Below, one piece after another: positions 18,201 through 27,198 of a DNA stretch of 64,000 nt; the stretch's first letter is position 1, and the number at the start of each line of letters is the position of its first letter. Under the pieces are notes generated by a model. The model searched no databases and had not been told where the DNA came from. It worked only from the letters and a program-made list of their open reading frames with translations. The stretch is from a virus. The translations under genes and the position numbers were made by a program. The stretch is from positions 1 to 64,000 of IMG/VR virus record IMGVR_UViG_3300049847_000494; one strand, written 5' to 3'.

Positions 18201-19620
18201 ACTAAAATCACCTAAAAATGTGATTATCGAATTTCTTAGAGGTTACATTGCAGGGGACGGATCCTCTGATAAACGTCAAATAAAAGTAACATCTGCATCA
18301 GAACAGCTTATGAAAGAAATTCAGATTTTATTTATAGATCTGGGTCTTATTTCAAGTAGACGTTCTGAATACGTTGTGACTAATAAAGGAGAAGGTTTAT
18401 ACTGGAATGTGACACTTGTAGGAAAAGAAGTGGATACAGCTTGGATCCTTATACCACCTATTCGACCTTTAAAAATACCAACACCTAAGAAGTTTAACAA
18501 TTCCAATCTTGACAAGATTTTCGGCTTACATGATAAAATTAAAGAGATTAGAAAAGATAATCAACATGTAGCAGGGAACCAACATAAAGGTCATTGGCAA
18601 TATCCAGGCTTCCCTTGGACAGGTGCAAAGGAACTTACAATAGGTTTTTATAGAACACATAGAGAGCAAATAACAAAAGGATTATTAGCACGAGGTAAAA
18701 CAGAGTTAGTCGCTGACATAAATGAGATATTAGATCAAGGCTATTTCTTGGATACTTTAAAGCACAAAGAAGAAAAGACAACTAAAGGACAAGTTGTCTA
18801 TGACTTTACAGTTCCTGGAAGTCACTCATTTGTCACACAAAGTTTTCTGTCTCGTAACACATTTGGGGTCATCTTTGGCATGGTGGCTAAATCACTTTCT
18901 GTGCTTATTAAGTGTTCTGAGCAGGAGGCTCAAAAGCTAATGAACGATTTAACCAATCGCTTTGAACGTGCGGGTGGTTGGTTAACCTATATTGAAGAGT
19001 TTGCCATTGACAATGGTTATGTTATGTCACCTTATGGTAGGGTAAGGCATTTAGCCCATCTAGCTGGTGACCAGGAACACTTACTAAGGCGTTTGGCTCG
19101 TAATTCACCTATTCAAGGTGCGGCATCGGATACTACAGCTTTAGCTGCTTGGACCTTACAAGATTGGATTGAACGCAATAATAAACCATACAAAATATGG
19201 AATGTTGTGCATGATGCTATTTATACAGAAGCTCCACTTACAATGGAAGCCTTACAAGAATGTATCAGCCAAACCAAGCGTTGCATGACACAGATCGGCG
19301 GTTTACTGAAAGACGATTTTGGGATTGACTTGATCGTACCGCTTGTAGTAGATTTCAAAGTAGGCTTACGCGGTGGAAGTTGTAAAACAATTGATGCTGA
19401 AACTAATCTTGAGGATTTCCTAAAAAATCTACAAGCTCAAGACAGGCGCATGCACAATGGTGATAAGTGGTGGCAAATAGCTACAGAACTTGAAATTAAA
19501 AGCTTGCAAAAAGAGATGTCTAAGGTTGAGAAAGATAAGAAGGACGGTTTTGAAGCCAAGTTAAAGAAAATAAGCCTTCAAATAGAGCATCACAAACAAA
19601 ACTTAGAGCGAGCAAAATGA
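15235..19620 (+). CDS. polA: Family A DNA polymerase with N-terminal family-4 UDG-like domain, 3'-5' exonuclease and an intein
   Basis: UDG-like CEGC, VGDPPG..ED...PFTGAAG, RCRP; exonuclease DTET, HGTKFD, YAGMD; polymerase TGRLASSAPNMQ, ADYGQAEVR, NSPIQG, VHD. Confidence 0.92.
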   Translation: MRTTLKHPKTFCEGCSLNKTRNKLSHYIPTDVYYNQVNDEGKPQVDLLIVGDPPGKAEDESSMPFTGAAGFEIKQALVDGNITSYAIAHSVRCRPVGPDGKNRAPTAEEAAACSNYIKQDLVQLRPKVVLLLSNIAKDVIAPKEWKSIGINKLRGDILTTEGTTYTATVNPNQFIRSNNYLEKQQFYRHVANTKRLITGEHSAYSRKGITQVLKTEEDVFKFINILETVPSEYVFVDTETENLNRVAPNKVATIQFAMDNEVGYVIPIDHWQSPFSPEATERIVSRLGQLFSNPDLPFECWCAHGTKFDYNKICRRFNIHRTGKPFLDTIMLEYLRDENQRRGADDDEGGGGQEGAGVAFDLKSMAKDKLCFRHYKSEMLEARKSGSFIEEPLWLDNGKISDFSDYAGMDVYVGRRLLCYILEDLEKTGHKQKSWNFAIKWSFRVTHLLSKIEINGAFADKDHLDYLQSEYSPILTRMLEIPQDIMESPEGKKANALLLETGNKTKGFRPLFGKQPTVFSIDKKDHRIALLVNTCKLEPVSYGKLKDENGKEIRARRGEVDKGNGIASIDKAFYAQHKGNYFSDIIQEYEGLKKLKSSYLDSVRSFLTDEFIQTKRGLQSNADNLFDGRIHATFWDSRTVTGRLASSAPNMQQQPRSDTFAKAMIKSLYGAAPGHFILEADYGQAEVRWWAQIAKDKEYAALFWNMYHIIQEYEANPTPELKLRVENECDIHKQVSSAMNRIPITEVTKEQRQAAKGLCVAKGTLIRTEEGLIPIEEAIENWKGELKLETRAGVETANKAYEITVDKTIKVTSGRGFELEGRPEHPILAWRDCKLQYVELQDLQETDNIVIRREAKLWPTREIPLVPYVRERNGGQGSEPYPCSMPEFLDGDLARLIGYITSEGFSNAERTISISNTDRRIIEDIRYILTSKFGTTGYSEFVNNKDRIEIQGHKPCTCFSINASASRFLRLNNLVGFETSYTKYVSPAILKSPKNVIIEFLRGYIAGDGSSDKRQIKVTSASEQLMKEIQILFIDLGLISSRRSEYVVTNKGEGLYWNVTLVGKEVDTAWILIPPIRPLKIPTPKKFNNSNLDKIFGLHDKIKEIRKDNQHVAGNQHKGHWQYPGFPWTGAKELTIGFYRTHREQITKGLLARGKTELVADINEILDQGYFLDTLKHKEEKTTKGQVVYDFTVPGSHSFVTQSFLSRNTFGVIFGMVAKSLSVLIKCSEQEAQKLMNDLTNRFERAGGWLTYIEEFAIDNGYVMSPYGRVRHLAHLAGDQEHLLRRLARNSPIQGAASDTTALAAWTLQDWIERNNKPYKIWNVVHDAIYTEAPLTMEALQECISQTKRCMTQIGGLLKDDFGIDLIVPLVVDFKVGLRGGSCKTIDAETNLEDFLKNLQAQDRRMHNGDKWWQIATELEIKSLQKEMSKVEKDKKDGFEAKLKKISLQIEHHKQNLERAK
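17509..18858 (+). mobile_element. Intein (450 aa) with LAGLIDADG endonuclease, inserted in PolA motif B
   Basis: Starts CVAKGTLI and ends VYDFTVPGSHSF...SRN before Thr. LAGLIDADG-like LIGYITSEG and FLRGYIAGDG. Removal restores RQAAKGL/TFGVIFG. Confidence 0.9.
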
Positions 19621-19814
19621 CATTTATACTTAATATATTAGGTGATATAATACTTTTTTTGGTGTTTCTTCTAGCTGCTTGCTTTGGACTAATCTTTCTT
19701 ATGGCAATCTCTTTCTTAGCTCTAGTCGGGTTAGCTGTTACCAGCCCACTATTAACAACATTATTTGTCGGGTATGCAGCAGCAACACGACTCAAGGACC
19801 AACAAGATGATTAG
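19617..19814 (+). CDS. Small membrane protein (65 aa)
   Basis: ATGA overlap with polA; very hydrophobic. Confidence 0.65.
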   Translation: MTFILNILGDIILFLVFLLAACFGLIFLMAISFLALVGLAVTSPLLTTLFVGYAAATRLKDQQDD

Positions 19815-20031
19815 TCTAAAAGAGCTACGCCATATATGTATTTCGCATGATCCAGCTGACGAAATGTCCGAGGCTAACTTCCGTAAGTTAATTACACCTA
19901 ATGTAGTATTAGAGTTAATCAATAAAGTTGAAAGCTTGAACAATTTAGTAGTGTCGCTGGAAAATGAACATAATCAAGTCGTATCAGATCTAACAGAGGA
20001 GATAGCTTCAAAAACAGCTATTATTTTCTGA
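19807..20031 (+). CDS. Hypothetical protein (probable start ATG 19807)
   Basis: AAGGA upstream; coiled-coil C-terminus. Confidence 0.55.
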   Translation: MISLKELRHICISHDPADEMSEANFRKLITPNVVLELINKVESLNNLVVSLENEHNQVVSDLTEEIASKTAIIF

Positions 20032-20105
20032 ATTTAAAAATAAACTGTAAATTTACAAAGTAGAAAATTATGCCTATTGTAGCACCAAAAGTATAATATG
20101 TTCCC

Positions 20106-21271
20106 TTGACATCCTCCCCGTCCTAAAGGACGTGGATTCCTGGATCACTTTAGATCTAGCGTTTGATGCCCCAAACGGAGAATGTTTATTGCAGCATTTG
20201 TATCCCGGTCATGATGCCGGTTACAAGTATTACAAACCCACTCTCTTATCCCCAAACCTTCTAGTCCTCTCGGACCACCTACTGTTAAACAGTAGGAACA
20301 GGTTTGAGTTGTAAGGTGTTCACTTACCTCAGTATAATTTCCTGAATGCCTAATGGCTTTATATTTCAAGAACGTCTTAATCATACCCCAACCAGAATCA
20401 TTAACAGACTTAGCCATCTTAGTCTTTGTAAGCTTCTTACTACTTACATCACCTACAAATATATCTTGGTAGTTTTTAGCTATTTCAGTAGTAAGCTTAT
20501 GACAAGCATCTAACCTGGAGTTCTTAATTTTAGCATGGATAGCTTTAACAGCTTTCCTCTTTTTATCTTTTTGAGCAAGAGCTAGTTTTCTTTGATGTTT
20601 TTGATAGAATTTTCCGTTCTTATACTTTTTACCGTGGGATGTTGTAGCTAATGTCTTTAAACCTAAATCAATACCTACACTGGTATTTTCAGGAGCAGGT
20701 TTAAGCTGCTCTACTTCACACACGAGGTTAATATACCACCTACCTCTTGTATCCCTACCAAAAGAACCTGACTTAATTCTACCTGGTAATTTCCGGCTAT
20801 TCCAGTAATTAATTGTTTTACCACAATACTTTAGGGTATCATCATTTATTACCTTAATAGCCGAGCCTTTAAAGGGTAACCAAGGTAAAGACTTTTTACC
20901 ACGGTATCTTAGCTTAATCTTCTTAGCTTTGTTTCTTTTGTTAGCATATTCTTCACATACAACTTGTATAGAAGTAGAATGAATGTTAAGCTCTTTAGAA
21001 GTACCTGATGTAAGGTTATTTAAGTCAAAGCCAGATAACCATTTACCATCTCTTTTAATAGCATTAAAAGCAGTATTATTACAATAGTTCCATACATAAT
21101 TAACAGCACCTGAAGCTTGTTCTAACCAAGCCACACCTGAGGAATCCTTAATCCGGTAACTGAAAGTCTGAAGTATCATGTTAAACCTAATTTACAAGAA
21201 AAGATGTAAAATGAAGAAAGAAAAGCTTGCATCCCCGCCCTGCAGCTACGCTGGAAGGACGTGGTTTTATG
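20106..21271 (-). mobile_element. Non-autonomous IS200/IS605-family element, copy 1 (tnpB only)
   Basis: Right-end hairpin GAATCCACGTCCTTTAGGACGGGGAGGATGTCAA; left end resembles copy 2 and follows TTTAG; no tnpA in the window. Confidence 0.85.
20145..21179 (-). CDS. tnpB: TnpB RNA-guided endonuclease, copy 1
   Basis: GIDLG (RuvC-I), VGD plus EVSEHLTTQTC, CxxC..CxxC zinc finger, DRDTNAAINI (RuvC-III). Confidence 0.93.
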   Translation of the reverse strand: MILQTFSYRIKDSSGVAWLEQASGAVNYVWNYCNNTAFNAIKRDGKWLSGFDLNNLTSGTSKELNIHSTSIQVVCEEYANKRNKAKKIKLRYRGKKSLPWLPFKGSAIKVINDDTLKYCGKTINYWNSRKLPGRIKSGSFGRDTRGRWYINLVCEVEQLKPAPENTSVGIDLGLKTLATTSHGKKYKNGKFYQKHQRKLALAQKDKKRKAVKAIHAKIKNSRLDACHKLTTEIAKNYQDIFVGDVSSKKLTKTKMAKSVNDSGWGMIKTFLKYKAIRHSGNYTEVSEHLTTQTCSYCLTVGGPRGLEGLGIREWVCNTCNRHHDRDTNAAINILRLGHQTLDLK

Positions 21272-21288
21272 CTAAAGAGGATAAAATA

Positions 21289-21564
21289 ATGGATCTAAGA
21301 CCACCAGCCTTACCACGTATCAGTTCACGCCCAGGACAGGCTATAGCTATTATACCAACTAAAAGCTTAGTAGCTATCTTCCTTGTGGTTTTTATATTAG
21401 AAGCTATTTTAGTATTAGCTCTAAATTCCTTTACTTTGCAGATAATCAAGGAAACAGCTGCTATAAATACATCACTCAAAGCCGGTCAAGCTGATCTACA
21501 GTGGCAACTTGAAGAGCTTAAAGCTAAGAAGATTGAATGCCGAACAATTTACCTGAAAAAGTAA
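21289..21564 (+). CDS. Membrane-anchored hypothetical protein (91 aa; start reassigned from 21178)
   Basis: SD AAAGAGG before ATG 21289. The track's upstream extension lies inside the IS left end. TM helix followed by coiled coil. Confidence 0.65.
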   Translation: MDLRPPALPRISSRPGQAIAIIPTKSLVAIFLVVFILEAILVLALNSFTLQIIKETAAINTSLKAGQADLQWQLEELKAKKIECRTIYLKK

Positions 21565-21566
21565 GC

Positions 21567-22028
21567 ATGAAAAAACCTATAGAGCCTAGAAAACCAGTAG
21601 AACCACAAAAAGATAAAGAAGTATATGTAGATACGACTATACCAGATATTACCTATAGTTACAAAGTAGATTATGATGATTATGGTCAGTCAGCTACATT
21701 TGAAAATTTCACTATCAGTGTTGGTGAAGTTAGGAAGCTGCTAGCTAACATAGATCCTCAAATAGATCCTGGTACTACAATATTCTTTAGTCCATATGCT
21801 GTAGAATACCGTGTTAGTAAAACAGTCCATGATCCTAAATATGATCAGAAAAGGGCTAGGTATCTAAAAGACCTTGAACGATATGAAACTAAAAAAGTTG
21901 AGTTTGAGGAAAAATCGAAACTATACGATGCATGGTTAAAAACACATCAAGAAGAAAACCTTACTAAGGAATACGAAAAAGCTAAAAAAGACTTGTTAAA
22001 ATTAGAGAAAAAGCTTAGGTTAAGGTAA
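21567..22028 (+). CDS. Hypothetical protein
   Basis: [13 protein letters not shown] start just after the upstream stop; charged coiled-coil C-terminus. Confidence 0.65.
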
Positions 22029-22654
22029 TGGACGATTTAAACTTTAAAAAGAAATGGTATAATTATCTCCCTAAGCGGGTAACCTATTTCTACTTTAGGG
22101 TAATATGGTACCGTAAGCAATGGCTTATCAATTTATTCCAGTTTTTAGTAAATCTAACTAAGCTGATATACAGCGTAGGTATCATCCAATACCGTAAAGG
22201 TACTAAAGCTTACAATAACATGTTTAAAGCTTTAAGTAATATTTATAGCAAGTGCCATGTAGTAAAAGGCAGGTTAGAGGCTTTTGCTGAAACCGGAACT
22301 GAAGGTTTTGTATGGATGCTTAATGATGCTACTAAGTCTGGTTATGAGGCTTTGGTACCTATTGAAAATGGTGATAAACTATTGATTTTTGACCACCATG
22401 GTAAGTGCATCTTTTGTGACTATATAGAGGAGGATCATGAAGCTGGTTATCAAGCCTATCCGCTAAACCCAAAATACGGTCAACCTGAAGCTTTTGGTTG
22501 TTGGATTCATTGGACGCAACGTGGTTATACACCCCAAAAATGGGCAGCTTTGTTTTTTCATAGTGTAGTGAATACAGAAGAGCACCCACTGTTATCAAAC
22601 AATAGTGATAAGGTAGCCTATCGTGCTATACTAATTAAAAAGTGCAATACTTAA
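22028..22654 (+). CDS. Hypothetical protein (208 aa) whose 3' end is duplicated downstream
   Basis: Intact ORF with TAATG coupling; [19 protein letters not shown] is also encoded at 24244-24316. Confidence 0.8.
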
Positions 22655-22665
22655 AGAAACTGATC

Positions 22666-22694
22666 TTGACTTAGACTCGAAAAGCCCTTATAGT
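22666..22694 (+). promoter_or_regulatory. Sigma70-type promoter of the relic tnpB
   Basis: TTGACT-N17-TATAGT upstream of ATG 22708. Confidence 0.7.
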
Positions 22695-22707
22695 AACGCT
22701 ACTACTC

Positions 22708-22869
22708 ATGTTAATCTATAAACGCTATAGAATCACCAAGATTCTACTATGCTCAACGTACCCTGGCTAGAAGAAAGAAAGGATCTATAAACAGGGATAA
22801 AGCAAAGATAAAGTTAGCATGTATCCACAGGATAATCAAGAGACAACAGGAACACTTTATCGTCTTCAG
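22708..22869 (+). pseudogene. tnpB: tnpB relic, 5' fragments
   Basis: MLIYKRYRI, then in another frame IESPRFYYAQRTLARRKKGSINRDKAKIKLACIHRIIKRQQEHF, typical TnpB segments joined by deletions. Confidence 0.75.
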
Positions 22870-24005
22870 TGTAAAACCCGTCATTCAGGGCTGGGATGTA
22901 AGCTTTTATTTTCTTGTAAATTAGGTACAACGTGATAATTCAAACTTTTAGTTACCGGATTAAGGATTCATCAGGTGTAGCTTGGTTAGAACAAGCTTCA
23001 GGTGCTGTTAATTATGTATGGAACTATTGTAATAATACTGCTTTTAATGCTATCAAAAGAGATGGTAAGTGGTTATCTAGCTTCGATTTACATAACCTTA
23101 CATCAGGTACTTCTAAAGAGCTTAAGATATCTTCTACTTCTATACAAGTTGTTTGTGAAGAATATGCTAACAAAAGAAACAAAGCTAAGAAGATTAAGCT
23201 GAGATACCGTGGTAAAAAGTCTTTACCTTGGTTACCTTTTAAAGGCGCAGCTATTAAGGTAATAAGCGATGATACTATAAAGTATTGTGGTAAAACAATT
23301 AATTATTGGAATAGCCGGAAATTACCAGGTAAAATTAAAACTGGATCTTTTGGTAGAGATGCAAGAGGTAGATGGTATGTTAACCTCGTGTGTGAGGTAG
23401 AGCAATACCAACCTGCCCCTGAAGGTACCAGTGTAGGTATTGACCTTGGTTTAAAGACATTAGCTACAACATCCCATGGTAAAAAGTATAAGAACGGAAA
23501 ATTCTATCAAAAACATCAAAGAAAACTAGCTCTTGCTCAAAAAGATAAAAAGAGGAAAGCTGTTAAAGCTATCCATGCTAAAATTAAGAACTCCAGGTTA
23601 GATGCTTGTCATAAGCTTACTACTGAAATAGCTAAAAACTACCAAGATATATTTGTAGGTGATGTAAGTAGTAAGAAGCTTACAAAGACTAAGATGGCTA
23701 AGTCTGTTAATGATTCTGGTTGGGGTATGATTAAGACGTTCTTGAAATATAAAGCCATTAGGCATTCAGGAAATTATACTGAGGTAAGTGAACACCTTAC
23801 AACTCAAACCTGTTCCTACTGTTTAACAGTAGGTGGTCCGAGAGGACTAGAAGGTTTGGGGATAAGAGAGTGGGTTTGTAGTACTTGTAACCGGCATCAT
23901 GACCGGGATACAAATGCTGCAATAAACATTCTCCGTTTGGGGCATCAAACGCTAGATCTAAAGTGATCTAGGAATCCCCGTCCTTTAGGACGGGGAGGAT
24001 GTCAA
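22870..24005 (+). mobile_element. Non-autonomous IS200/IS605-family element, copy 2 (tnpB only), nested in the relic
   Basis: Left-end hairpin after TTCAG; right end GAATCCCCGTCCTTTAGGACGGGGAGGATGTCAA. Confidence 0.87.
22932..23966 (+). CDS. tnpB: TnpB RNA-guided endonuclease, copy 2
   Basis: Same motifs as copy 1; I count 16 aa differences in 344. Confidence 0.93.
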   Translation: MIIQTFSYRIKDSSGVAWLEQASGAVNYVWNYCNNTAFNAIKRDGKWLSSFDLHNLTSGTSKELKISSTSIQVVCEEYANKRNKAKKIKLRYRGKKSLPWLPFKGAAIKVISDDTIKYCGKTINYWNSRKLPGKIKTGSFGRDARGRWYVNLVCEVEQYQPAPEGTSVGIDLGLKTLATTSHGKKYKNGKFYQKHQRKLALAQKDKKRKAVKAIHAKIKNSRLDACHKLTTEIAKNYQDIFVGDVSSKKLTKTKMAKSVNDSGWGMIKTFLKYKAIRHSGNYTEVSEHLTTQTCSYCLTVGGPRGLEGLGIREWVCSTCNRHHDRDTNAAINILRLGHQTLDLK

Positions 24006-24243
24006 AGCTCGCAGACATGTTTGGGTGTGGTACTATTGATGCAGCTAATCGATTGAACCAGGCAGAGTTTTGTTGTGTAGTTTGCCAACTCAAAATGCAT
24101 GCTGATTTGAACGCTGCACTAGTTTTAAAAAGCCGTGCGAGTCGCTCGGCTCAGCCTGTGGAGGGCTCGGCAATAGCCACCCGTCGAAGCAGGAAACAGC
24201 CCAAAAGCTGAAAATCATAAAGAAAACTTATGATTGATTACTG
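24006..24243 (+). pseudogene. tnpB: tnpB relic, 3' fragment with probable omegaRNA scaffold
   Basis: SSQTC/CGTID..NR.NQAEFCCVVC...HADLNAA (zinc finger and RuvC-III); GCCTGTGGAG...GAAGCAGGAA; hairpins CAGC/GCTG and AATCATAA/TTATGATT. Confidence 0.75.
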
Positions 24244-24324
24244 CAGAAGAGCACCCACTTTTATCAAAAAAAAAAAAAATAGTGACAAAGTAGCATACCG
24301 AGCTATACTAATTAAAGCAGCCAC

Positions 24325-25053
24325 ATGACAACAGAAAATGACACCCTAAAAGAGCTTGTAACCAAACTACAAAAAGCCAATGAGGAGCTTGAAAGGTTTG
24401 CTTATGTAGCTTCTCATGATTTAAAAGCACCCTTACGTGCTATATCTAATTTAGCTGGGTGGATCAAGGAGGATATAGATTCCTGTTCTATTACAGCTGA
24501 GACACAGTCTCACCTGAAAATGATGTTATCCAGGGTTGCCCGTATGGATAAGCTCCTTGACGATCTACTAACTTATGCTAGAGTAGGTAAGAACAAGGAT
24601 AGCTTGGAGCTTATTGAAATTGACGAGTTGATTAGAAGTGTAGTAGATGTACTTACCATAAAAAAGTTTGAGATAGTTATTGAGTCTGAAATATCCAGCT
24701 TTATAGCTGAGCGTGTTCCTTTAGAGCAAGTCCTTATGAATCTAATAGGTAACTCTATAAAGCACCACACTAAAAAGAGTGGTACTATTACTATAGGCAT
24801 AATAGATAAGCAGACGAAACTTGAGTTTACCATAACAGATGACGGTCCTGGTATACCAATAAAGCAACAAGACGAAGCTTTTGAGATGTTCAAAACTTTA
24901 AAACCTCGGGATGAGGTAGAGGGATCAGGTATGGGCTTGGCTCTAGTTAAAAAGATAGTGGAAAGTCAGGGTGGTAAAATTGAAATACTACCAACGAAAA
25001 AAGGTTTAAGTGTCAGGTTTACTTGGATTAAAGAAGTAGCCACCAGTGTTTAA
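24325..25053 (+). CDS. Histidine kinase lacking a sensor domain (HisKA + HATPase)
   Basis: H-box ASHDLKAPL, N-box NLIGNSIKH, G1 DDGPGI, F-box, G2 GSGMGLALVKKIVE. Confidence 0.93.
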   Translation: MTTENDTLKELVTKLQKANEELERFAYVASHDLKAPLRAISNLAGWIKEDIDSCSITAETQSHLKMMLSRVARMDKLLDDLLTYARVGKNKDSLELIEIDELIRSVVDVLTIKKFEIVIESEISSFIAERVPLEQVLMNLIGNSIKHHTKKSGTITIGIIDKQTKLEFTITDDGPGIPIKQQDEAFEMFKTLKPRDEVEGSGMGLALVKKIVESQGGKIEILPTKKGLSVRFTWIKEVATSV

Positions 25054-25447
25054 TATACTATTAGTAGATGATGACAGTGTTGATGTCATGACGCTACAGC
25101 GGGCTTTCCGTAAACACCCAATTATGAAGAAAGCTAAGCTACTTACAGCTAAAAGTGGAAAAGACGCTTTAGATAAGCTACTTTCAGGTGAAATAGAAGA
25201 GCCAAGCATAGTATTACTTGATCTTAATATGCCAGAAATGGGTGGGTTGCAGTTTTTAGAGCATGTTCGATCTAACCCACAGCTTGCTAAATTACGTGTA
25301 ATCGTATTAACAACATCAGCTGATAAAAACGACATCAATCAAGCTACCGATAAATGTATTGTTGGTTATATCAAGAAAGCCAAAGCTGGTGATTATACCA
25401 CTCTTACAGAGCTAATTTATCATTACTGTTCTCTAACAGAGAGTTGA
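25046..25447 (+). CDS. Single-domain response regulator (Rcp1/CheY-like)
   Basis: LLVDDD, LLDLNMP, VLTTS, YIKK. Confidence 0.92.
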   Translation: MFNILLVDDDSVDVMTLQRAFRKHPIMKKAKLLTAKSGKDALDKLLSGEIEEPSIVLLDLNMPEMGGLQFLEHVRSNPQLAKLRVIVLTTSADKNDINQATDKCIVGYIKKAKAGDYTTLTELIYHYCSLTES

Positions 25448-25448
25448 C

Positions 25449-26327
25449 ATGCTAAATATTTTTCTATTAGAGGATGATGATGCAGATAGCTTGCTTATAA
25501 GCTTGACACTGAAAAAATCAGGCGTAGATTTTAAGCTAACAACCGCTAAAACCTTAGAACAAGCAAAAGAAACAATAAATACTTGTACGTTCGATTGTGC
25601 TATCCTTGATAATACCTTACCTGATGGTAAGGGTCTTACCCTATTAGATAGCTTACAAGATACACCTTGTATTATGCTAACAGGTTTGGCTGATGAAGCT
25701 TATGCTATCAAGGCAATCCAACAGGGATTGGAAGATTATATTAGTAAAGATTCTATCACGCCTAAAAATCTAATAAAATCTATAACTTATGCAATAGAAC
25801 GTAATACTATTAAAAAGCAGTTAGTGGCTACACAAAAGAAGTTAGACGATTTATCTAAAGCTGATCCACTAACAGGATTGCTAAATAGACGTGGGCTAGA
25901 TGAGGTACTAAACCGTTTAGCTACACGGGATACCTCACATGGTATCATCCTGATTGATATCGATAACTTTAAGACGATCAACGATAACTTTGGATATAAT
26001 GCTGGTGATACAGCTATCAAGTATATAGCAGACAAATTGTCAAAGGAGGTTAGACCCTTTGACATTGTATCACGTGTAGGCGGTGACGAGTTTATTATTC
26101 TTGTACAGAATGTAGATATTACTGCTTGTAAGCTAGTCGCTGAAAGAATCCGATCAGCTATTGCTTTTGAACAGGTCACCAGTGGTGACAATAAATTTAG
26201 TATAACCGTAAGTATAGGAGTATCAACAGTAAACCAAGTTTCAAAAAATATAGAACTATTGTTAAAATTAACACAAAATGCTTTAAAGCAAAGCAAATCC
26301 AAAGGAAAGAATGCCGTCTATGCGTAA
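25449..26327 (+). CDS. REC-GGDEF diguanylate cyclase
   Basis: REC motifs LLEDD, ILDNTLPDG, MLTG; DPLTGLLNRR, DIDNFKTIND, RPFD I-site and GGDEF. Confidence 0.95.
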   Translation: MLNIFLLEDDDADSLLISLTLKKSGVDFKLTTAKTLEQAKETINTCTFDCAILDNTLPDGKGLTLLDSLQDTPCIMLTGLADEAYAIKAIQQGLEDYISKDSITPKNLIKSITYAIERNTIKKQLVATQKKLDDLSKADPLTGLLNRRGLDEVLNRLATRDTSHGIILIDIDNFKTINDNFGYNAGDTAIKYIADKLSKEVRPFDIVSRVGGDEFIILVQNVDITACKLVAERIRSAIAFEQVTSGDNKFSITVSIGVSTVNQVSKNIELLLKLTQNALKQSKSKGKNAVYA

Positions 26328-26775
26328 TATATTAAGTACTATTAAACTTTTTCTAGGGTTCAAACCAAAGAAGACAGTAGCTAAGACCTATATTGATTTT
26401 GTAACCCATTTAGAAAAAACTTTACCTCATAAAGATAGTTATGTTATGCTGACTCAGCATTCTTTAGAATATGGGTTATTAACTAATAAGTTTATTCTTG
26501 TTGAAAAACCTAATAATAAGTTTGTTCTTTCCTTTTTTATCCTATCAGACCCCCAGTTTGTTGCTTTGGTATATGGTTCAGCCTTAGAATACTTTAATAA
26601 AAAGAATCTTGAGTTGCAAGCTTCTTTTGTCTACAAACTTGATGGTAGTATTTGTCTAACAACTGATCCTAACTTTCGTAAGGTCTACGAAAGTCTATTG
26701 ACACCTGGTAAGGTTTACGATAGTCTATCAACTGTACCAACGACACAACCAGTAAAAAAGTCAGAAATGAACTAA
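26311..26775 (+). CDS. Hypothetical protein
   Basis: ORF in the operon; start may be ATG 26320. Confidence 0.6.
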   Translation: MPSMRNILSTIKLFLGFKPKKTVAKTYIDFVTHLEKTLPHKDSYVMLTQHSLEYGLLTNKFILVEKPNNKFVLSFFILSDPQFVALVYGSALEYFNKKNLELQASFVYKLDGSICLTTDPNFRKVYESLLTPGKVYDSLSTVPTTQPVKKSEMN

Positions 26776-26787
26776 AGAGGAATCTAT

Positions 26788-27198
26788 ATGAATGCAAATA
26801 ATGAAAAGATCCTGTTTACTTATATTCAAGACAAAAATGAACCTTTGCGGGTCCTAACCGTTGCTAGGCAACGTATTGAAAATACTATTTACTTTTCTTA
26901 TTGCATTAATAAGGTAGCTACTGACATCAATAGGAATACACGAGAAAGTTATAAGAATTATACTATCCTAACCCAGAAAAAAGAAATTGCAGTGTTTGAT
27001 TTCCACAACAAAAAGCGTGCTAGGGAGATCGTGACAGGTAGGCTCAAATCGGAATCTAATAACTATTCTGTTACACTCCAAGGCGGCGAAAGCCCCCTAA
27101 CTGCTGTGTTGTATGCACTTATGACTGAGCATCATCATAAACATGTAAGTAAAATTGCTAAACAAGCTGTAGAAGCTGGTTTCGGTTTACCTAAGTAA
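26788..27198 (+). CDS. Hypothetical protein (136 aa)
   Basis: SD AGAGG. Confidence 0.7.
   Translation: MNANNEKILFTYIQDKNEPLRVLTVARQRIENTIYFSYCINKVATDINRNTRESYKNYTILTQKKEIAVFDFHNKKRAREIVTGRLKSESNNYSVTLQGGESPLTAVLYALMTEHHHKHVSKIAKQAVEAGFGLPK

Follow-up and report, generated by a model that had tools for sequence, protein, structure and literature searches.

How did the end of one phage gene come to stand twice in the same stretch of DNA, on either side of transposon genes, and does the arrangement work as a system of gene replacement? The question is raised by a locus in the first 64 kb (the window, that is, the whole stretch of 64,000 nt that was analysed) of a 132,976-bp virus record, IMGVR_UViG_3300049847_000494 (CheckV completeness ~34%; GC content 37.5%). 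The end of a gene that we call gene X recurs downstream of it, and between the two copies lie two elements of the insertion sequence (IS) family IS200/IS605, namely an intact one, IS-A, nested in the remains of another, IS-B. A first-pass annotation, made from the DNA letters alone, had proposed a tnpB cassette that invaded the gene by cutting the empty allele under RNA guidance and that brought a recoded gene end with it. The data given here suggest that the locus is probably the scar of an IS insertion that was repaired by recombination and that now carries a live IS nested within it, all of it built from ordinary mobile elements. It looks like a scar rather than a working gene-replacement system. 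The coordinates of the features are collected in Table 1.

Two diverged copies of the end of gene X

The recurrence of the end of the open reading frame (ORF) 22028..22654 further downstream, which the first-pass annotation had noticed, was borne out. A repeat search paired 22575-22602 with 24244-24271 at 93% and 22597-22639 with 24274-24316 at 86%, and BLAST within the genome returned the repeat with an E-value of 7.6e-13 (2.6e-15 when flank was compared with flank). After one extra matching base pair leftward, the copies cover 22573-22639 and 24242-24316; the upstream one, which is part of the live gene, is referred to as allele 1 and the downstream one as allele 2. Gene X has 23 homologues besides itself in a large protein collection, the closest at 64% identity. 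A C-terminal motif of 20 protein letters, followed by a variable tail, is common to all 23, and this conserved motif is encoded by both copies of the gene end. Gene X matches no Pfam or PHROG family, and it has no paralogue in the 133-kb record.

The six substitutions listed in the annotation are all present and are all synonymous changes at third positions. Compared in frame, with the codons of an A run omitted, the copies differ at six synonymous sites and one non-synonymous site, the latter being an ACA/GCA difference in the leftward extension. With 14.7 synonymous (S) and 48.3 non-synonymous (N) sites, this corresponds to a synonymous divergence (dS) of 0.59, a non-synonymous divergence (dN) of 0.021 and a dN/dS of 0.035; the 6:1 synonymous excess has a p of 9e-4 in a binomial test and of 4.5e-4 in Fisher's test. 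Because neutral decay would give mostly non-synonymous differences, the two ends must have diverged before they were joined, and since the divergence predates the juxtaposition, one of the copies came from another lineage. The data therefore show that purifying selection acted on both gene ends while they diverged in two lineages, before they were brought together.

The first 16 nt are identical in both copies, for which p is ~0.07-0.12 at the observed synonymous divergence. This is compatible with chance and needs no special explanation. The identical bases were also considered as a trace of guide-driven conversion, which was dropped because chance suffices.

The downstream copy terminates ...LIKAAT-TGA. 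This TGA (24326-24328) shares bases with the ATG at 24325 that opens a histidine kinase gene, just as had been annotated. A run of 14 A (24266-24279) throws this copy out of frame. Still coupled to the kinase start and beginning where the relic IS ends, it is best read as the displaced original end of the gene, in agreement with the annotation. Upstream of the overlap, the frame that opens at 24230 (Table 1) would stop at a TAG 45 nt earlier if the run had six A, as the upstream copy implies; expansion of the A run may have restored translational coupling to the kinase.

A dead tnpB element ends where the displaced gene end begins

The annotation had placed a tnpB relic between the two copies. 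There is a relic, but it is not the gene at 22932-23966, which is open over 344 codons; the relic is a different tnpB (tnpB-B, belonging to IS-B) that is split into two pieces by IS-A. The pieces are co-oriented and in order. The middle piece matches an intact relative (P0025) in tblastn with 49% identity over 55 aa and residues 215-250 of the TnpB of Aeromonas phage phiA009 with 56% identity over 36 aa. The C-terminal piece (70 aa; coding part 24006-24211) has six intact relatives (P0025-P0030) of 394-430 aa at 66-79% identity, and matches the Pfam family TNB with an E-value of 1e-4, which is under the curated cut-off. A DNA profile of the family, run with nhmmer, aligned 22750-22859 with profile positions 860-969 (E 2e-8) and 24004-24197 with positions 1165-1359 (E 2e-30).

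The relic lacks its left end, ~197 N-terminal codons and ~195 nt internally, and it carries one frameshift. There is no match to the IS-B profile upstream of 22750, so there is no left end after a TCAT flank. These losses mean that the left junction is a secondary rearrangement and not the border of a cassette. The DNA between the stop codon of gene X and the relic (spacer U, ~70 nt) has no similarity to the IS-B family profile and no further copy in the genome. A promoter had been annotated here, between the two copies, and spacer U does hold a consensus match at 22666-22694. However, sigma-70-like matches are at chance level in the region (eight observed against 7.5 expected from shuffled sequences) and the promoter was dropped.

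The right end of the relic is preserved. Its GATTAC (24236-24241) aligns with the end of the IS-B family, and the border reads ...GATTGATTAC up to 24241 (in a longer reading, ...TTATGATTGATTAC) followed by TGCAGAAGAGC from 24242. This shows that IS-B ends exactly at 24241 and that the displaced gene end follows without a gap, in the position of the guide. The guide position proposed in the annotation is thus correct, and the border has to be moved from the annotated 24244 to 24241, two bases before it. In the window, an AT-rich hairpin (24213-24235) stands in place of the GC-rich terminal hairpin of the family, and the alignment with the profile goes no further than 24197. The scaffold of the guide RNA (omegaRNA) is degenerate as well. 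Nothing in the IS-B relic can act today and its nuclease is dead.

Relatives of IS-B are ordinary IS605-type elements

The IS-B family was represented by seven genomic and 80 metagenomic loci, and the right end was read in the 68 that had at least 100 nt behind the C-terminal anchor. A GC-rich hairpin followed by NNTTAC was found in 65 of these 68 (GATTAC in 48, GTTTAC in 10, CATTAC in four and GCTTAC in three). The DNA behind NNTTAC is unrelated among the loci, with 54 distinct flanks in the 65. On the left, there were 30 hits to a regular expression, and inspection by eye found TCAT directly before the element in 24 of them, 16 being TTCAT; the remaining six comprised three hits inside tnpA, one CCAT and two ambiguous cases. 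A divergent gene for a Y1 transposase, or a fragment of one, lies at most 100 nt upstream of tnpB in 39/87 loci, and one such tnpA that was checked in Pfam matched Y1_Tnp with an E-value of 2e-38. Taken together, these data show that the IS-B family consists of ordinary IS605-type elements. They contradict the annotation, which had assumed a transposase-independent cassette lacking IS ends.

The flanks of the family were also searched for duplicated DNA. The search was run on 51 loci, of which three (L100, L115 and L123) were dropped for self-overlap with a wrong N-terminal anchor. A copy of the upstream flank starting at the right end was found in none of the 48 remaining loci, nor in any of the four loci of a smaller first set. 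One tblastx match at the right end (L125) vanished under the low-complexity filter, two weak flank matches (L097 and L113) run in the opposite direction, and none of the weaker matches in L024, L031, L035 and L039 or of 76 other matches starts at the right end. The annotation had expected relatives to be routinely flanked by a recoded duplicate of the neighbouring gene end, and had itself named ordinary IS ends without such a duplicate as a result that would speak against it; this is the result that was obtained.

An intact element is inserted in the relic

According to the annotation there was no TCAA right end. TCAA is present at 24002-24005, where it is part of IS-A, whose right end reads ...GGATGTCAA. 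The IS-A TnpB (tnpB-A) matches OrfB_IS605 (PF01385, E 2.4e-17) and the Cas12f1-like TNB family (PF07282, E 7.4e-19), both passing the cut-offs, and the PHROG transposase family phrog_506 (E 2e-72). There are three copies of IS-A in the 133-kb record at 93-95% identity, the other two being matched at 20106-21202 and 123098-124194 on the minus strand. All three begin after TTTAT (22856-22860 within the relic) and end in ...GGAGGATGTCAA (...GTCAA), and the flanks beyond are unrelated. All three tnpB copies are open, with pairwise dN/dS of 0.19-0.21 at a dS of 0.14-0.20. The copy at 22932 starts with GTG and the other two (at 21179 and at record position 124171) with ATG.

Fifteen bacterial relatives of IS-A were found at 41-52% identity (in Oligoflexus, Bdellovibrionales and others), and 11 were examined for the right end; L028 and L032, which end at the match, and the partial L037 and L038 were left out. 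In 10 of the 11 the stop codon is followed by a hairpin and (G/A)TCAA, after which the sequences diverge. A repeat of the flank was found at neither of the two sister copies and in none of the 11 relatives. The last 226 nt of IS-A fold better than shuffled sequences (z-score -8.2), and Rfam gave weak, sub-threshold matches to HgcC and sot0042.

No Y1 transposase gene was found in the 133-kb record (~34% of the genome) by tblastn with the tnpA of the family at E-values up to 10. IS-A is therefore classed as tnpB-only (IS1341 type); it would have to rely on TnpA supplied in trans. The RuvC-I D and RuvC-III D are present in the IS-A TnpB. The column of the RuvC-II Glu holds Gly in all six members of the IS-A family that have sequence there (the seventh, L031, is gapped), and the Glu is present in the relatives of IS-B and in the Aeromonas phage TnpB. 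Relocation of the RuvC Glu is a possibility known from work on Fanzor and TnpB. That the three phage copies evolve under purifying selection (dN/dS ~0.2) in spite of the Gly at RuvC-II points either to a rearranged active site or to a function other than that of a nuclease. IS-A is the only live part of the locus today. Its omegaRNA ends at 24005, so that its guide (24006 onward) is the relic DNA behind it and points into the relic.

The TnpB proteins of IS-A and IS-B are only ~23% identical, and the end hairpins of the two are nearly the same (left AAACCCCGTCCTT..., right CCCCGTCCTTTAGGACGGGG; IS-A hairpins at 22880-22905 and 23975-23996 compared with those of IS-B relatives L039-L125). The two families might be moved by related TnpA enzymes. 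A junction item joining 23996 to 22904 was considered as the junction of a circle and was rejected, since it is the left end of another IS-A copy and the hairpins are alike.

IS-A and its nearest copy form an inverted pair (95% identity over 1097 nt, ~1.6 kb apart) that brackets gene X and two small ORFs, and recombination between them could invert the segment between them. 'Genomic isomerism' in cyanophages is the subject of a 2026 preprint that reportedly mentions TnpB. The inverted copy adjoins the start region of an ORF: its left flank motif (21281-21291) is 3 nt from the ATG at 21289, from which a membrane-protein-like ORF runs to 21564.

Searches for relatives of the locus

Scans of a viral collection, from which near relatives of this virus record may be missing, found no relative of gene X, of the kinase or of the C-terminal piece of the relic. 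A 24-nt pattern from the omegaRNA region of the relic had no match, and 18 exact matches to the 16-mer shared by the two gene ends proved unrelated by blastn and tblastx. A search of a phage database gave short matches only, in five records. Nine distant gene X loci in contigs of metagenome-assembled genomes have no tnpB, no duplicate and no synteny with the window. Among the contigs of the sequencing runs, where absence is not proof, no joint or contig was found that links gene X directly to the kinase or that skips IS-A, as an empty allele would.

Origin of the locus

The right end of IS-B lies against the allele 2 gene end, and the only route to this arrangement is insertion of IS-B into an allele 2 gene X. 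In the reading that we favour, and to which we would give somewhat better than even chances, IS-B would have entered such a gene in an ancestral phage lineage, at a point 3' of a TCAT and ~26 codons short of the end of the gene. The insertion would have taken the conserved C-terminal motif off gene X and left the allele 2 end, with the translationally coupled kinase, directly behind the right end of the IS. Recombination with a diverged co-infecting phage would then have brought in the allele 1 end together with ~70 nt of the DNA downstream of it (spacer U). The right-hand crossover of this exchange would have been illegitimate and would have fallen inside tnpB-B, removing the left end of the IS and the N-terminal half of the gene, and the product would have been selected for because gene X was restored. 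tnpB-B would have decayed thereafter (the internal deletion of ~195 nt, the frameshift and the loss of the GC-rich terminal hairpin), IS-A would have inserted at TTTAT inside the relic and, lastly, the A run would have expanded in the displaced gene end. This reading draws on known processes only. The anatomy of the locus and the ordinary ends of both IS families can be read from the data. We infer the order of the events, and likewise that a one-off recombination rather than RNA-guided homing was the source of the foreign end.

Several points weigh against this origin. No relative was found with enough similarity to reveal one of the parental arrangements, and the order of events and the one-off nature of the exchange are arguments from parsimony. 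TCAT is not demonstrable at the original point of insertion, the native core beside the left end being gone. Contigs from the Logan assemblies do not bridge IS-A; that its two sides are continuous is taken from the original assembly and from the shared orientation and correct order of the relic pieces. The layout of core, foreign end, nuclease gene and native end is that of hybrid genes with mobile ORFs, which spread by endonuclease homing (PMC3630166, in the part of that source drawn on here). Finally, the live copy would not be targeted through the relic guide, as a homing cassette needs: the upstream copy has TGAA in place of the TCAT flank of the family, and at guide position 2 it has A where the guide has G.

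Two variants of the history were set aside. Excision of IS-B from the TTCAT upstream in allele 1 (22557-22561), taking the gene end along, would make the gene before insertion out of frame with the displaced end. Inversion between the inverted IS-A copies was considered as the source of the layout; the relic pieces are co-oriented and ordered, and the present order is the simpler ancestral one.

The main alternative is that the locus was once a cassette that homed under RNA guidance and rescued the gene that it entered, which we consider unlikely but not negligible. Such a cassette would have comprised the foreign end, the spacer with its promoter, tnpB-B and the omegaRNA, with the displaced native end as guide. 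TnpB-B would have cut the uninterrupted allele 2 genes of related phages at TCAT + TGCAGAAGAGCACCCA, and the cassette would have been copied into them by repair, for which the core of the gene and its native end would have served as homology arms; immune itself, the imported end would have kept gene X working, and the nuclease would have died later. This would account for the displaced end lying in the guide position and for a live copy that has no TCAT flank and that mismatches the guide at position 2. It also has a precedent for the layout in the mobile-ORF hybrid genes of mitochondria, in which mobility is driven by an endonuclease (the same part of PMC3630166), and one for the process in the spread of IS605 elements among plasmids that TnpB facilitates independently of TnpA, termed 'non-restorative homing' (PMC13565253, again as far as the part drawn on here goes). 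However, such a flank is found in none of the 48 intact IS-B relatives, and the ends of the family are ordinary, with a tnpA in many of its loci. Homing needs the same founding recombination as the scar and one deletion more, that of the N-terminal half. Chance alone is expected to make a diverged allele immune at a 4-nt flank, and the match of the guide to the uninterrupted allele 2 and the homology arms on both sides likewise do not exceed what chance would give with such an allele. Promoter-like sites are no more frequent than expected, no second carrier, empty allele or close relative was found in our searches, and the nuclease is now dead.

It is very improbable that the gene end was replaced by a site-specific integrating element, or that an insertion made a long target duplication. 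The two diverged gene ends do bracket foreign DNA, and their identical first 16 nt could pass for a core site, but that identity can be due to chance. Neither between nor beside the copies is there a recombinase gene; the only ORFs matched to families there are tnpB-A and the tnpB-B relic, and the right border of the insert is precisely the right end of an IS605-family element.

Less credible still is a chimera, in which the repeated IS-A would have led the assembly to fuse two loci or two strains. The sample does contain several copies of IS-A, and the Logan contigs of sequencing run X1, which may be the sample source of the window, break within it at 23007 and 23950, with a depth there of 129-229 compared with 47 outside. 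Against this, depth in X1 is alike on both sides of IS-A (47.3 and 47.0), and each outer junction is bridged without a difference by a single contig (21102-23007 and 23950-27000). Both flanks of IS-A derive from one and the same rare tnpB-B, and the two pieces are oriented alike and correctly ordered. Low-depth fragments identical to the window were also found in runs X2, X3 and X4, which belong to two further studies (freshwater and aquatic metagenomes; 19000-27000 examined). Some nine contigs of X2 pass at 24005 from IS-A into varied other DNA, which indicates that IS-A-like elements are multi-copy in that community.

Least probable of all is a tandem duplication in place whose copies drifted apart later, which the direct repeats flanking an insertion might suggest, since an unused copy is expected to gain ~3 non-synonymous differences per synonymous one and not the 6:1 synonymous excess observed at a dS of 0.59 (binomial p 9e-4).

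Neighbouring genes

The kinase behind the displaced gene end is the first gene of a signalling module (24325-26327) that encodes a sensor-less histidine kinase (242 aa), a receiver-only protein (133 aa) and a receiver-GGDEF protein (292 aa). The starts and stops of these genes overlap one another.

Table 1. Features of the gene X locus; positions are those of the window unless record positions are given.
Feature	Position	Strand	Remarks
Gene X, live copy	22028..22654	+	ORF of 208 aa, complete with conserved C-terminal motif
Upstream copy of gene end (allele 1)	22573..22639	+	In frame within gene X
Spacer U	22655..22720	.	Between gene X stop and relic; holds TTGACT-17-TATAGT at 22666-22694
IS-B relic, middle piece of tnpB-B	22721..22860	+	~Residues 198-252 of intact relatives
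IS-A	22861..24005	+	Intact tnpB-only IS200/IS605-family element, 1145 nt
tnpB-A	22932-23966	+	Within IS-A; GTG start, 344 aa, uninterrupted
IS-A omegaRNA 3' hairpin	23975-23996	+	
IS-B relic, C-terminal piece	24006..24241	+	SSQTC... zinc finger, HADLNAA; frameshift; degenerate omegaRNA/right end
Putative open frame, 32 codons	24230..24328	+	From inside relic right end, through A run, to TGA overlapping kinase start
Displaced gene X end (allele 2)	24242..24328	+	In guide position of relic omegaRNA; TGA overlaps kinase ATG
Histidine kinase	24325..25053	+	HisKA + HATPase_c, 242 aa; gene downstream of displaced end
Sister IS-A copy	20106..21280	-	Inverted; tnpB at 20145-21179
Third IS-A copy	record positions 123098-124194	-	Beyond the window

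Relation to known systems and implications

The general properties of the TnpB proteins of IS200/IS605 elements are reportedly to be found in Karvelis 2021 and Altae-Tran 2021. They are also treated in a review (PMC13565253, of which part is used here). IS-A and IS-B resemble these elements, whether of the IS605 type (tnpA and tnpB) or of the IS1341 type (tnpB only), in a TnpB with OrfB_IS605 and TNB domains, in subterminal hairpins, in a fixed left flank (TTTAT for IS-A, TCAT for IS-B) and a right tetranucleotide (TCAA and TTAC, respectively), and in making no target duplication. In both, the structured 3' region runs to the right end and the next bases are the guide. Unlike typical members, they lie in a large phage record in which no tnpA was detected, IS-B is gutted and the IS-A family has Gly in place of the RuvC-II Glu.

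The closest parallel in layout is with the hybrid genes of fungal mitochondria that have a mobile ORF and a duplicated carboxy-terminus, as described for atp6 in Allomyces and for atp6, atp9, cox2 and nad3 in Glomus (PMC3630166, as above in part). There, mobility is ascribed to the endonuclease, and most of the differences between the two ends are synonymous (PMC3630166), as they are at the locus. They and the locus share the series of core, in-frame foreign C-terminus, nuclease gene (here a relic) and native C-terminus downstream. In contrast, the mitochondrial nucleases are protein-guided (LAGLIDADG or GIY-YIG) and relatives show the native end, according to the same part of that paper (PMC3630166); the nuclease in the window is an RNA-guided TnpB, is dead and lies inside an ordinary IS.

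Homing of TnpB transposons has been put forward as a concept (PMC13565253; Meers et al.; both drawn on in part), and the 2026 review describes the 'non-restorative homing' of an IS605 insertion among plasmids and lists co-infecting phages as possible targets (PMC13565253). The locus is similar in that the displaced end stands where the guide is read, so that the uninterrupted allele would have been a target for TnpB-B, had it been active. It differs in that, in the part of the review used here, the IS alone is reinstalled or copied and there is no spare gene end (PMC13565253). In a limited literature search we found no description of a TnpB element with a spare gene end.

The free-standing endonucleases of T-even phages (Seg and Mob) carry out intronless homing with co-conversion of flanking markers (PMC13565253, in the same part). 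Like them, the locus has a phage nuclease gene beside a resistant allele of a neighbouring gene, and its foreign end presumably came from co-infecting relatives. Unlike it, Seg and Mob replace alleles without a retained duplicate and recognize their targets by protein. Prophages and islands that integrate into the 3' ends of genes bring a substitute end with them, as at tRNA genes and at icd with e14. There too a diverged copy replaces the gene end and the original is displaced downstream, but an integrase and an attachment (att) core are needed, and none is present at the window locus.

If the favoured origin is right, a large freshwater phage harbours IS605-family TnpB elements with enough activity to hit its genes and to nest in one another, and a phage gene that was broken by such an element was repaired through an imported, diverged gene end. 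The locus also raises the open question of whether phage TnpB elements can become homing cassettes that carry a resistant spare gene end. The layout is the right one, but with the nuclease dead and no relatives to compare, the locus motivates this question and cannot decide it. If homing with rescue of the gene did take place, it would be the RNA-guided counterpart of the mitochondrial hybrid genes, and the invasion of a useful gene would have cost the phage nothing; the locus would then be the corpse of such a cassette, overrun by a second IS.

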